A stretch of 64,000 nt of DNA, taken from Escherichia coli. GTDB lineage: Bacteria > Pseudomonadota > Gammaproteobacteria > Enterobacterales > Enterobacteriaceae. Every line of letters starts with the position of its first letter. Position 1 is the stretch's first letter. The stretch lies in the NCBI RefSeq assembly GCF_044324875.1, contig NZ_CP172185.1; one strand, written 5' to 3'. Made by a program: the position numbers and the translations under genes. The notes beneath the pieces are model-generated. The model was not told where the DNA came from, did no database searches, and saw nothing but the letters and a program-made list of their open reading frames with translations. This document shows positions 42,970-46,811 of the stretch, piece by piece.

Positions 42970-43221
42970 AATGGCAGGTTACTACCAAACGAATTGGAAA
43001 ATAGATACTGGAAAAAAATTTAAAATCGTGATCATTTTTTGTTGACCACTACAAACATTTATGTTTTTTTATGCGAATGAAGTTATCCTTCCTTTCTGCC
43101 TGGTTGTCTCATTCATACAGATATCTGGCAGACATAACTTGTTGTGAAAAGTAGATGCTTACCGCATGTCTGATGCACTTTTGTATAAAGGCAAAGTATT
43201 TCAGCAAATGGAAATGATTAT

Positions 43222-43723
43222 ATGAACAACACAGACTCATTAGAAAAAATAATCAAACATCAACAAAACAACGATCCAAAATACCCCTGCCAGGAGCATC
43301 TGTTGATACAACTCTGTATCCGCGTAAACAAAAAAAATACAGGATAATATATCGAGTTTACTCAGTGGATATGGAATAAATTATTCAACATATATGGTTC
43401 TTACCATATTATCCACAGCAGATAATCATTGTCTTTCGCCCTCAAAGATAAGCAGAGAACTCCAGTTTACCAGAACAAACATTACCCGCATTACAGATTT
43501 TTTAGAAAAAGCAGGGTATATAGAAAGAACTGATAGCAGAGAGGATCGCCGTGCTAAAAAAATCAGTCTGACATCAGATGGTCTGTCCTTTATTCAGAAC
43601 GTCAATATTGCACAAAGTCTGCACCTGAAAGAAATCTGGAGCCCGCTGACCCATGTAGAGTGTGAACTGTTTGAAGACATTAATAAAAAATTACTGACGC
43701 ATATTGCTGATGTGTGTCCCTAA
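43222..43723 (+). pseudogene. MarR-family regulator resembling the PapX/SfaX/FocX group, frameshifted in an A8 tract
   Basis: ORF MNNTDSLEKIIKHQQNNDPKYPCQEHLLIQLCIRVNKK stops at 43345; the +1 frame continues as IQDNISSLLSGYGINYSTYMVLTIL...TRTNITRITDFLEKAGYIERTDSREDRRAKKISLT (winged helix); A8 run at 43330-43337. Confidence 0.65.
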
Positions 43724-44352
43724 AGCATGAAGAGTTTGAGGAAACTGAAGAGCTTCAAGCAATGAATCATATAATAAGCAGGCATAAGAGCGACATAACT
43801 ACAGGCGGAAACAGCGATACAAGAAAACTACTGGTTTAGGTCACAATGCAGCAAAATGACAAACTCATACGACGGTTCTTGTGAATGATGCGGTGCCTAA
43901 CCCGCAAATATCAGCATGATTCACCGTAGAACTTACTGATACAAGATAACGTAATGATTGAGCTTATCTCATATGGGGTAACGCGCAATAAAAATAGTTG
44001 AAACATTGTTTATAATTGTTCAATCTATCTTATTTTTATTAATATAGTTGAGCTTCTCAACACATTACTTTAAAGTTCTACACTAAAGAGAACAAAATTA
44101 TCACAACGGATATGGAGATACTTTCAGGCCAGTCAAACCGGTTTAACTGATATGGTTGAATACACGCTTGACTATGAATGGTTTATGGTATTCAGTCCCG
44201 ATAACTATGGGGCCAGTTTTGTGTAGCTTTCAACTTTAGTTGTTTTCACTCATCATAGATGATGCAATAAAAACATCATTTTCTCACGCATTGCATATTG
44301 CTGGTATATCCATATCGCATGTAGCACAGAGTGTTGACTAAATTATAGAAAT

Positions 44353-44820
44353 ATGATTTTTTATCTCATTGACAAAGAAGTTAAGGACCGAGAGATGAGT
44401 TTTAATACCACACACGAGAAATCTGAAATCTATCGTCTGATCCTTAGAGAAAGTGAACTCATTACAGCATGGGTAAAATCTGGAGACACGCCGTCAGCAG
44501 TTTACGGAAAACTACGTGATAAAAACCCGGATATAATCTTTTCGATAAATGGCTTTTTATATAACCTACGTAACTTTAACTATGCACTATATGAAACAGC
44601 CACAAAGAACAAAAGCAAAACAAGGTTAATAATACTCAACCATTATGATGATATTGCATCAGCTATCCGTGCTGGTCATACGCTTAAAGGTGTTTACAAA
44701 CTCGTATGCCCACATATAACATATAACTGTTTTATTACACAACTCAGGAAAACCTATCCTGACCTGCATTCTCAGGGTAAAGCGAATCGCAGCAACAAAA
44801 ACAGAATAATAGCTAACTGA
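44353..44820 (+). CDS. Hypothetical protein (141-155 aa) in an AT-rich region, possible C-terminal HTH
   Basis: ORF with alternative start MSFNTTHEK at 44395; the segment ASAIRAGHTLKGVYKLVCPHITYNCFITQLRK resembles a resolvase-type HTH; low GC. Confidence 0.4.
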   Translation: MIFYLIDKEVKDREMSFNTTHEKSEIYRLILRESELITAWVKSGDTPSAVYGKLRDKNPDIIFSINGFLYNLRNFNYALYETATKNKSKTRLIILNHYDDIASAIRAGHTLKGVYKLVCPHITYNCFITQLRKTYPDLHSQGKANRSNKNRIIAN

Positions 44821-45128
44821 TGATATATAAAATGTTTTACACTATATCTTTTATTGTAACTAAAATTACTTTGATCCTACAAAAAGAAAGGTAAGAAGGG
44901 GTTTAAAAGATCATCACGAGACAACTGTTCTAGTTTTTTAAGCCCCCCATTAATTTAAAAAACAGATACCAAGCATGAATAAGATTATATAAATTTCATT
45001 ACATACAATTCATTACTGTCCGGACAAACATTGTTGTTTATAAAATATAACACACCAATTGTAAAGCTGTGAGGTCATGCTACTTTTAACAGAATTTTTA
45101 AACAAGAGGGAATGGGAGACCATTAATA

Positions 45129-45314
45129 ATGCAAGAAACAAAAATCAACCGCAAATCTAACTGTACAAACTGCAATATTCCCGGATGTAAGCAAACCCCG
45201 TTTTGCAAGTACTGTCGTAGTGTCAAAGATATATCCGGAGCTAGACGCTCTTTATATCTCCATGTAGCAATATTCATCATTATTATTGTACTTACTATTA
45301 TTTCAGTACTTTGA
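45129..45314 (+). CDS. Small Cys-rich protein with C-terminal transmembrane helix (61 aa)
   Basis: CTNC...CKQTPFCKYC followed by hydrophobic VAIFIIIIVLTIISVL; RBS-like GGGAGA upstream. Confidence 0.35.
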   Translation: MQETKINRKSNCTNCNIPGCKQTPFCKYCRSVKDISGARRSLYLHVAIFIIIIVLTIISVL

Positions 45315-45989
45315 CAAGCCTTTTTGCACCAACTGATGTACACAATCAGATTTCAGCCTGTCCGTAATAATTATATTTGATATTACATTAACGCTCTTTA
45401 ACTGTAGGACAGCACAGCGTAAATTGTTGAATAGTTCATTTAAAAAATCATAAGGATAAAAAACCAACACTTAAAACATTGTTCTTTTTCAAGAACACAT
45501 AGTTAAATAAAATAACAAACCACTACCAACTTTAAAACATTAAAAAAAACTGTGAGAGATTACTTTAAAAAGAGTTCATAGCTTTTTAATAAACCATATA
45601 AAATAAACAATACATATGTTACCCCCCCAGCAAAAACGTGACAAAAACATAACACCATAAGCAGGTACCATATAACCGCACACCACCATAACGAATTGGT
45701 CACTGGTTCATGACAAACCGTTCATAATTGCTAAAAATATTAATACACCATCATATAGACTTTCATGTCTAATGAAAAAAATATTTATACTCCAGAATAG
45801 CCACAACCTTTATAAAATTCAGCTCATTAGAATATAAATGCATATGCCAATGAACAGAATACATTCTCATCCTTATTGAGGAACATACTGCCTGAGAGAA
45901 AAATCATCACTCAGACTTTGAAATAACATTGTCGAGTTCATATTATACAAAAGGGGAGTCATTCCCCTTTTTTAGCTTAGGTACTCAGT

Positions 45990-46811
45990 TTATAAAGAAA
46001 TGGCAGAATACTCTGTGTTTATCCATGAGTGTTCCTTTTCCCAGGTGAATATCCATTTACGTACTGGTCCGGCCATCACGTTAAGGTAATAACTGTCATA
46101 CCCGGCCATCGTCGCCACCGGGTGGTACCCTTTCGGCACCATGACCACGTCACGGTTATAGACCGCCATACATTCATCAAGTGTGCGGTCATCGGTATAC
46201 ACCCGCTGCATGCAGAACCCCTGTTCCGGGTTGAGGCGATGGTAATAGGTCTCCTCCAGATAGCTCTCCTGAGGCGGGTTATTCGTATCGTGTTTATGGC
46301 TCGGGTACGAACTGGTACAGCCTTCGTTGGTCCAGACCTCGACGACCAGCAGGCTGTCAGCGGGCTTGTCTTCCGGCAAAATATTATGCACATAACGCTG
46401 GTTGTGGCCGTTACCGCGCGCTTCGCCATCGATATCCTGAGGTGCAATCAACCGCGTCGGGTATGTCCCTTTTCCCGGAGCGGTACAGACTGCCAGCTCC
46501 AGTTTCGTCAGCGCCTTCACCTGCACTGCCTCCTGCGGGGTGACGTAAACCGCCCAAGGTTTGATGCGCTCGAACGGGCTCATCCGCTCCCCGATATCAG
46601 TAAACTGTGCAGAAGGAGTGCTGATGAAAGCGCGCCCGGCCACAAGCACCAGACAGCGCTCTTCACTGACAGCGGGCAGCGTCAGTTGCTGCCCTTCCTC
46701 AAGTTCATAGGCCTCAAAGCCAACATATCCCCATCCGGCGCTTTCCGGCGTGACAGACTGAGTCCGCCCCTCAGCGTTCGGCTGTTGCCAGCGTGATAAC
46801 AGACGTGACAT
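45990..46811 (-). CDS. iolB: 5-deoxy-glucuronate isomerase IolB
   Basis: 273-aa cupin-like ORF at the 3' end of the iol gene array. Confidence 0.75.
   Translation of the reverse strand: MSRLLSRWQQPNAEGRTQSVTPESAGWGYVGFEAYELEEGQQLTLPAVSEERCLVLVAGRAFISTPSAQFTDIGERMSPFERIKPWAVYVTPQEAVQVKALTKLELAVCTAPGKGTYPTRLIAPQDIDGEARGNGHNQRYVHNILPEDKPADSLLVVEVWTNEGCTSSYPSHKHDTNNPPQESYLEETYYHRLNPEQGFCMQRVYTDDRTLDECMAVYNRDVVMVPKGYHPVATMAGYDSYYLNVMAGPVRKWIFTWEKEHSWINTEYSAISL

Follow-up and report, generated by a model that had tools for sequence, protein, structure and literature searches.

The window analysed here is a 64,000-nucleotide stretch of Escherichia coli DNA (contig NZ_CP172185.1), in which a block of about 3 kb (42970-45950) lies between insertion sequence (IS) elements and the inositol (iol) genes. 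As an earlier note on this DNA had pointed out, the block is strikingly AT-rich: at 34.1% GC it is the lowest-GC 3-kb stretch of a window that averages 51.3%, the E. coli genome as a whole having about 51%. In sliding segments of 500 bp the GC fraction is 0.56-0.64 at 39.7-42.7 kb, 0.30-0.40 at 42.75-46.0 kb and 0.54-0.65 from 46.0 kb onward. The contrast at the borders is exaggerated because both flanks, IS66 on the left (39900-42700, 58.3% GC) and the iol genes on the right (45990-52000, 58.6% GC), are themselves foreign and GC-rich. The inventory of open reading frames (ORFs) is the one given in the earlier note, namely a split regulator gene, an ORF of 155 amino acids (aa) at 44353-44820 and a Cys-rich ORF of 61 aa at 45129-45314. 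The two long stretches between and beyond them, 43724-44352 and 45315-45989, indeed contain no ORF that is conserved or matches a family, and elsewhere only short unconserved ORFs are found.

The split regulator, at 43222-43723 on the plus strand, is an ‘X’ gene, a MarR-type winged-helix regulator with homology to the papX/sfaX/focX family, and in the window it is a pseudogene. Its ORF pieces at 43222-43347 and 43394-43723 are separated by a +1 frameshift, already recognised in the earlier note, in which a tract of eight adenines (A8, 43330-43337) replaces the seven (A7) of intact alleles and truncates the product at 41 aa. RefSeq likewise marks the L001 copy (strain HCM-27C-1) ‘frameshifted’. 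An intact 166-aa allele (L002:15323-15823) matches Pfam MarR with an E value of 2.8e-12 (46.8 bits, cut-off 24.6) and MarR_2 with 1.8e-11. An alignment over 161 aa gives this intact protein 72.1% identity with the PapX of strain 536 and 73.3% with the Nissle 1917 SfaX; identity is 82% to the product of an orphan X gene in a pheV-type island of strain MLI106K3 and 60% to that of the X gene in a second E. coli lineage (L009). The ratio of nonsynonymous to synonymous substitution rates (dN/dS) between the window lineage and this second lineage is 0.09. The A8 tract is shared by haplotypes with many other differences between them (the window and L001 versus L023), and closer haplotypes such as L002 keep A7; this pattern points to repeated slippage there or perhaps to an X gene that switches on and off at a low rate.

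Homology to the fimbrial X genes extends upstream of the coding sequence. In a megablast search with 42900-46000 as the query, about 1340 genomes beyond those carrying the whole block match only query positions ~157-832 (43056-43731 of the window) at ~80% nucleotide identity, and the gene annotated under these partial matches is papX, sfaX or ‘MarR family’. Identity with the papX/sfaX loci starts 166 bp before the ATG, shortly after a fragment of an IS3-family element, and the conserved upstream region (43056-43221, plus strand) should correspond to the proximal promoter region of papX and focX. PapX and FocX are described, in passages of PMC6246914, as repressors of flhD and motility whose genes have their own promoter, with a shared focX/papX transcription start 144 bp upstream of the ATG; in the same passages PapX, FocX and SfaX are MarR-type repressors that reduce flhDC and motility while fimbriae are being produced. 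The pap operon of strain 536 and the foc operon of Nissle 1917, both fimbrial, end in an X gene, papX and sfaX respectively. No fimbrial genes are present upstream of the X gene in the window; the IS3-family fragment and IS66 are there instead, and only the 166 bp are common to the fimbrial loci. The X gene is a PapX-family gene by its sequence but not by its context, which lacks a fimbrial operon, and in the window it is inactive.

The X gene and the two small genes that follow it recur in the second lineage (L009, L010), where an X-type MarR gene, a 143-aa gene and a 62-aa ORF stand in the same order; the 62-aa ORF follows the 143-aa gene in L011 as well. When the window lineage is compared with L009 only the three genes align and the spacers between them do not, and this pattern is the main indication that all three genes are, or recently were, real. 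Since both small genes also follow an X gene in this diverged lineage, the three genes form, as far as their sequences tell, a cassette. In L009 it occurs without iol genes. The earlier note had left open whether its small ORFs were conserved in related islands, and here they are, with dN/dS values against L009 of 0.29 for the first of them and 0.30 (over 58 codons) for the 61-aa ORF, in which all five Cys residues are kept.

The first of the small genes, at 44395-44820 on the plus strand, encodes a 141-aa protein (RefSeq WP_000009634, ‘hypothetical protein’) composed of two tandem homologous helical repeats of ~55 aa. The 155-aa ORF of the earlier note exists, but its length does not stand: the true start is almost certainly the ATG at 44395, because this is the RefSeq start, homologues begin at the equivalent residue and an AAGGA lies 7 nt upstream. 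This Shine-Dalgarno sequence (44383-44387) falls within a conserved 5' region (44291-44394, plus strand) with 78% homology to L009, L010 and L011; the homology begins at 44291, and the remaining spacer upstream is unaligned.

The ‘resolvase-type’ helix-turn-helix (HTH) that had been proposed for this protein fails as a family match and survives only weakly as a predicted fold. There is no above-threshold match in Pfam, NCBIfam, PHROG or PADLOC. Pfam DUF5338 scores 15.6 bits against a cut-off of 25.9, with five of nine family members matching below threshold (best E 0.0019), and none of the nine matches HTH_18/HTH_AraC. The AlphaFold2 model is all-helical with a mean pLDDT of 88.6, and its weak structural matches include many HTH domains. 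An hhalign comparison of the N-terminal with the C-terminal half finds them homologous (probability 96%, E 1e-9), and the protein is basic, with a pI of 9.7. The two repeats resemble HTH domains, and the 141-aa protein is probably a DNA-binding accessory regulator.

The family to which it belongs is small. When 1.84 billion representative proteins were scanned exhaustively with HMMER, 11 matched, several of them fragments of the same protein, which leaves about eight distinct relatives with 30-78% identity; one of these (P0017, 417 aa) appears to be built of repeated copies of the ~55-aa unit. No relatives were found in PLSDB plasmids or INPHARED phages (tblastn), nor in GTDB species-representative genomes. 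Besides following another X-type MarR gene (L009, L010), relatives have PerC-family genes as immediate neighbours, in two arrangements (L003-L008, L018), or adjoin a PilI-family gene (L019) or, within an IncI-like transfer region, an Hha gene (L016); one faces a convergent fimbrial operon whose last gene is an EAL gene (L014). PapB-family genes are also among the neighbours in these homologous loci. The family thus recurs next to island-borne regulators. PerB/BfpV, the neighbour of PerC on pMAR2, was considered as a further relative and rejected (hhalign probability 0.4% with the family alignment). For the 141-aa gene dN/dS is 0.21 against L003, substitutions are distributed 19/14/34 over the three codon positions, and the gene, like its family across 22-70% protein divergence, is under purifying selection.

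The second small gene is the 61-aa ORF (45129-45314, plus strand), which RefSeq leaves unannotated. Its product would have a basic N-terminal domain, in which five cysteines are spaced as C-x2-C-x4-C-x5-C-x2-C, as well as the conserved motif DISGARRSL and, at the C-terminus, a membrane helix of 20 residues directly preceded by RR; a GGGAG lies upstream at 45114-45118. The L009 homologue, the 62-aa ORF at 3404-3592 of that locus, shows 60-62% protein and 76% nucleotide identity and retains DISGARRSL and the membrane helix as well as the cysteines, and of the six reading frames only that of the 61-aa protein is open in both lineages. These features point to a cytoplasmic five-Cys domain held at the inner membrane by its C-terminal helix, a putative tail-anchored domain rather than a pore-forming peptide, and the paired CxxC motifs probably bind zinc. 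An antisense ORF of 81 aa (45098-45343) was rejected, as it contains stop codons in L009.

No match to the 61-aa protein was obtained in Pfam, NCBIfam, PHROG or PADLOC, and in protein databases the only relatives that turned up were near-identical copies or frameshifted ones. Metagenomes scanned with a degenerate DNA pattern for DISGARRSL gave 39 matches, eight of them from the iol-linked lineage and the rest due to chance, and so no further lineage. Within the ORF, a run of 30 nucleotides (45229-45258) is identical to L009 at 29 positions, in an ORF that overall differs by ~24%, synonymous sites included. The segment overlaps a predicted small hairpin (45237-45251), and its near-identity could reflect chance or a constraint at the RNA or DNA level.

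The three genes fare differently within the iol-linked lineage. We compared 27 alleles, 19 from the window and other genomes or assemblies and eight from metagenome contigs, with the X gene scored in the 19; alleles differ by ~1% or less. The 141-aa gene is intact in all 27, with one amino-acid variant and a nucleotide diversity (pi) of 0.0035 that is the lowest of eight segments (0.005-0.015 in the others). The X gene, with a pi of 0.0052, is disrupted in six of its 19 alleles by at least three independent events, namely A8, another frameshift and a stop codon. Disruption of the 61-aa ORF is found in 6/27 alleles and reflects at least four events (two distinct nonsense mutations, a frameshift and, in one clade, a change of ATG to ATA); its pi of 0.015, in part due to L024 with its clustered indels, is at least that of the neighbouring non-coding DNA (~0.011). 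Of the three, the 141-aa gene alone is maintained in this lineage; the other two can at present be dispensed with and are repeatedly lost. In one allele (L035, strain 20KM2222) an IS1A copy sits in the spacer equivalent to 44821-45128, where it separates the two small genes and disrupts neither.

A bleaker reading takes the whole block as functionless debris and the intactness of the 141-aa gene as an accident among very similar alleles. The repeated, independent disruption of the other two genes agrees with this, as do the small differences between alleles and the IS elements that flank and invade the block, including the IS1 of L035 and a relic of IS110 type. We nevertheless think it rather unlikely, given that the 141-aa gene is the least diverse of the eight segments, that its product has a single amino-acid variant and that no disruption was found where about three would be expected at the per-bp rate of the other two genes (P ~0.03, hand calculation), in addition to the purifying selection on the family across far wider divergence.

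The look of a small membrane toxin that the earlier note saw in the 61-aa product finds no support. Type I toxins are typically short and mostly hydrophobic. A toxin of a type I toxin-antitoxin or similar system, silenced by H-NS or by an antisense RNA, would explain the small size, the strongly hydrophobic helix and the AT-rich foreign location, and the repeated natural inactivation of the ORF is what would be expected if its expression were costly; the near-identical segment at 45229-45258 could be an antisense target, and a weak promoter-like site is present on the opposite strand (45306-45279). However, two-thirds of the protein is a basic, soluble five-Cys domain in a tail-anchored architecture, variation within the lineage resembles that of non-coding DNA, and searches of Pfam, NCBIfam and PADLOC linked the protein to no known toxin family (Hok/Gef, Ldr, Ibs, TisB, ShoB and others), not even by the Hok/Gef model, which other analysed loci do match. 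A conserved flank that might encode an antitoxin RNA or structured leader is likewise missing, the L009 homology being confined to 45151-45310; Rfam reported nothing, although an uncatalogued antisense RNA might lie inside the ORF, and the number of promoter-like sites in the region (14) equals the expectation from shuffled sequences (15.0), which makes them uninformative. Collectively, these results make a toxin quite improbable.

The spacers account for most of what remains. That between the X gene and the 141-aa gene measures 671 bp (43724-44394) and is ~500 bp longer than the 180 bp of L009 (2564-2743). It contains what resembles the 3' part of a decayed element in two fragments (43776-43835 and 43853-43942, plus strand), 77-78% identical to a Shigella flexneri plasmid copy that ends in a transposase C-terminus (...VARELAGFIWDMG). 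We take the relic to be of the IS110 family from this recognised C-terminal motif rather than from a family search. Single E. coli records contain as many as 16 copies of a ~87-bp piece, and single Shigella plasmids have it at up to eight places, in unannotated DNA, and the decayed element is repeated in plasmids and chromosomes of Shigella and enteroinvasive E. coli (EIEC). The relic probably accounts for part of the excess length over L009.

The spacer beyond the 61-aa ORF (45315-45952, 31% GC) is found only in the iol-linked lineage, contains no conserved ORF or RNA and varies like neutral DNA. It is also dispensable: 477 bp (45477-45953) are deleted in L021 and 54 bp (45322-45375) in L022, the adjacent iol genes being annotated as intact in both, and the shorter spacing to iolB in L033 and L036 is consistent with a 54-bp deletion like that of L022. 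Six-frame translation of the spacers revealed no recognisable decayed gene, Rfam found no RNA family over 42700-46200 at E<=1, and the block has no inverted repeats of the kind that make invertible switches or flank miniature inverted-repeat transposable elements (MITEs). Terminator-like sites are more frequent than expected (7 versus 1.8), and only the one adjoining iolB is interpretable. The long spacers are junk, made up of the IS110-type relic and the variably deleted stretch. The small RNAs (sRNAs) or regulatory switches that the earlier note had suspected are not in evidence, the covariance-model search being empty and the spacers unconserved between lineages and partly deleted. That they hide a structured RNA or cis-regulatory switch of the iol operon, by analogy with the Salmonella iol island, whose H-NS-silenced reiD and iolE promoters and sRNAs are described in passages of PMC10783015 and PMC6288124, is highly improbable, for although the block adjoins iolB in all inspected copies, it lies downstream of the last gene in the minus-strand iolB row and beyond the terminator hairpin rather than at a promoter, in addition to which the natural deletions leave the iol genes annotated as intact, the spacers are as variable as neutral DNA and absent from the L009 lineage, and the cassette exists there without iol genes.

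Both edges of the block are marked by known features. On the left is the IS3-family transposase fragment (42747-42969, plus strand), the C-terminus of an integrase core; its match to rve_3 is weak (E 8.7e-5, 22.6 bits, below the cut-off of 26.5), and RefSeq labels the counterpart in the near-identical L001 and L002 ‘integrase core domain-containing protein, internal stop, incomplete’. On the right, a hairpin and T-run (45953-45989, minus strand) separate the block from the stop codon of iolB (45990-46811, minus strand), where the GC-rich iol genes begin. The hairpin, also picked up as an inverted repeat, spans 45953-45975 and the terminator-like site 45953-45966, and the hairpin probably terminates iolB. 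Its first base, 45953, is where the deletion in L021 ends.

The block is accessory DNA of E. coli: of 5426 complete genomes, 45 carry the whole of it at 98.7-100% identity, among them ATCC 8739 and many bovine, avian and human isolates. Every copy inspected has the same order of IS66, the IS3-family fragment, the MarR gene, the hypothetical protein, iolB-iolE and the remaining iol cluster, and the eight metagenome contigs agree as far as they reach. The surroundings carry an integrase gene, a remnant of the sit operon (sitA) and several IS elements. A GC content far below that of the host, the sporadic distribution and the nearby IS66, IS3, IS1 and integrase gene are all as in xenogeneic DNA, and the suspicion that the block is foreign, lying as it does in an IS-rich island, was sound.

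Several observations concern the wider island. Strain 11 (L021, NZ_CP195330.1) has two copies of the block, at 4.86-4.89 Mb and at about 1.41 Mb, and several other genomes, some of them bovine, have two matching places. In the inspected copy of strain 11 (4.86-4.89 Mb), which is the one with the 477-bp spacer deletion, the whole unit of IS66, block and iol genes adjoins genes for two-partner secretion and autotransporters. About 2.4 kb of the window (~33929-36569) are missing from strain HCM-27C-1, which is otherwise 99.9% identical, and this extra DNA probably represents the insertion of an element. At ~38590-39650, when aligned to the annotated L001, the window has an intact sitA and after it a truncated sitB fragment that directly adjoins the IS66 copy; the sit iron/manganese transporter operon has been cut by the IS cluster. 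GC contents below 40% also occur in the same island at 29750-32250, around an integrase gene and a gene for a tetratricopeptide repeat (TPR) protein, and at 37000-38000, around the DoxX-family gene.

We consider it likely that the block is a decaying mosaic, a scrap of AT-rich, horizontally acquired DNA that holds a cassette from the tail of a fimbrial operon and is unrelated to the iol pathway. It would have been carried into an E. coli island together with the GC-rich iol operon. The left third would be the extreme 3' tail of a chaperone-usher fimbrial operon of pap/sfa type, because papX-locus homology begins directly after the IS3 fragment, and the body of the operon would have been replaced by the IS3 and IS66 insertions. 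What would remain is the terminal X gene with its own upstream region, killed by a +1 slip in the A7 tract, and behind it the 141-aa protein, which would bind DNA as an accessory regulator, and the 61-aa product with its Cys domain anchored in the membrane. A number of findings weigh against parts of this interpretation. No fimbrial structural gene stands beside the X gene, and orphan X genes exist, as in strain MLI106K3, so that the fimbrial-tail origin rests on the homology of the X gene and the 166 bp. The 27 intact alleles of the 141-aa gene are weak evidence by themselves when alleles differ by <1%. For the 61-aa ORF, the substitution pattern over codon positions (16/9/19) is not significant (p ~0.17, hand calculation from counts), the coding evidence comes from one diverged lineage, and AlphaFold2 is confident only for the helix, modelling the N-terminal Cys domain with low confidence.

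The supposition that the block is silenced by H-NS is plausible by analogy, given its 34% GC, what is generally known of H-NS and the down-regulation of sfaX by H-NS reported in passages of PMC6246914. DNA of this composition would be expected to be coated by H-NS.

Beyond the reading of the block as island scrap, the two small proteins may together make up a regulatory module of two parts, not described before, that travels with fimbrial X genes and in which the membrane protein would tether the DNA-binding protein, or sense on its behalf, in the manner of a membrane-sequestered anti-regulator. Their genes are linked in both known lineages, with purifying selection on both between the lineages. 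Beyond these lineages, relatives are found of the 141-aa protein alone, and their loci lack the 61-aa gene. We regard such a module as unlikely; if it existed, it would add a further layer to the adhesin-motility or virulence-gene cross-talk of E. coli islands.

The value of these results lies mainly in annotation. The compositional anomaly is best explained as an ordinary mosaic of island debris and not as a hidden functional element, and the block alters the understanding of no major system. The gene annotated as ‘MarR family regulator’ next to the iol operon of E. coli is identified as a PapX-family gene; some strains keep it intact, among them ATCC 8739, in which both small genes are intact too, and others carry an inactivated copy, which could contribute to strain differences in motility. 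Two uncharacterised small genes are flagged, one for a well-maintained tandem-repeat protein that probably binds DNA and one, absent from the RefSeq annotation, for a 61-aa membrane protein.

Several known systems invite comparison with the block. The Salmonella island GEI4417/4436, with its reiD and iolE promoters and the sRNA RssR, likewise combines an AT-rich segment and a regulator gene with iol genes in a horizontally acquired island. According to passages of PMC10783015, H-NS binds 16 regions of that island and silences the reiD and iolE promoters, and sRNAs are encoded there (PMC10783015; PMC6288124). Unlike in Salmonella, the E. coli iol genes have ~59% GC and a different organisation that includes an ABC transporter, and the cassette also occurs without iol genes in L009; we found no sequence relationship between the two AT-rich segments, and Rfam reports no RNA family in that of E. 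coli.

The 141-aa protein, as modelled, is reminiscent of the AraC/XylS-type (MarA-like) domain, which is also basic and all-helical, with ~110-130 residues and two tandem HTH-like units, and AraC-type domains recur among the weak structural matches of the model (3lsg, 3oio, 3oou, 3w6v and 3mn2). It differs in that HTH_18/AraC is not matched in sequence and in that its two units are clear duplicates of each other. PerC/Pch and Hha share with the family a neighbourhood but not homology. The 61-aa product, for its part, is very small, single-pass and missed by annotation like the familiar MgrB, SafA and type I toxins (Hok, TisB, Ldr, Ibs); it differs from them in its 40-residue, basic, five-Cys cytoplasmic domain, in the position of the helix at the extreme C-terminus, in matching no family and in having no known partner.

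The X gene differs from papX, focX and sfaX in having IS3 and IS66 rather than fimbrial genes upstream, in its frameshift in the window and in the two small genes at its 3' side, none being annotated after papX in strain 536 or sfaX in Nissle 1917. In other respects it is much like them, with 72-73% protein and ~80% nucleotide identity that takes in the upstream 166 bp, a MarR domain, membership of the 166-aa length class and the AT-richness that is common to the fimbrial X genes.

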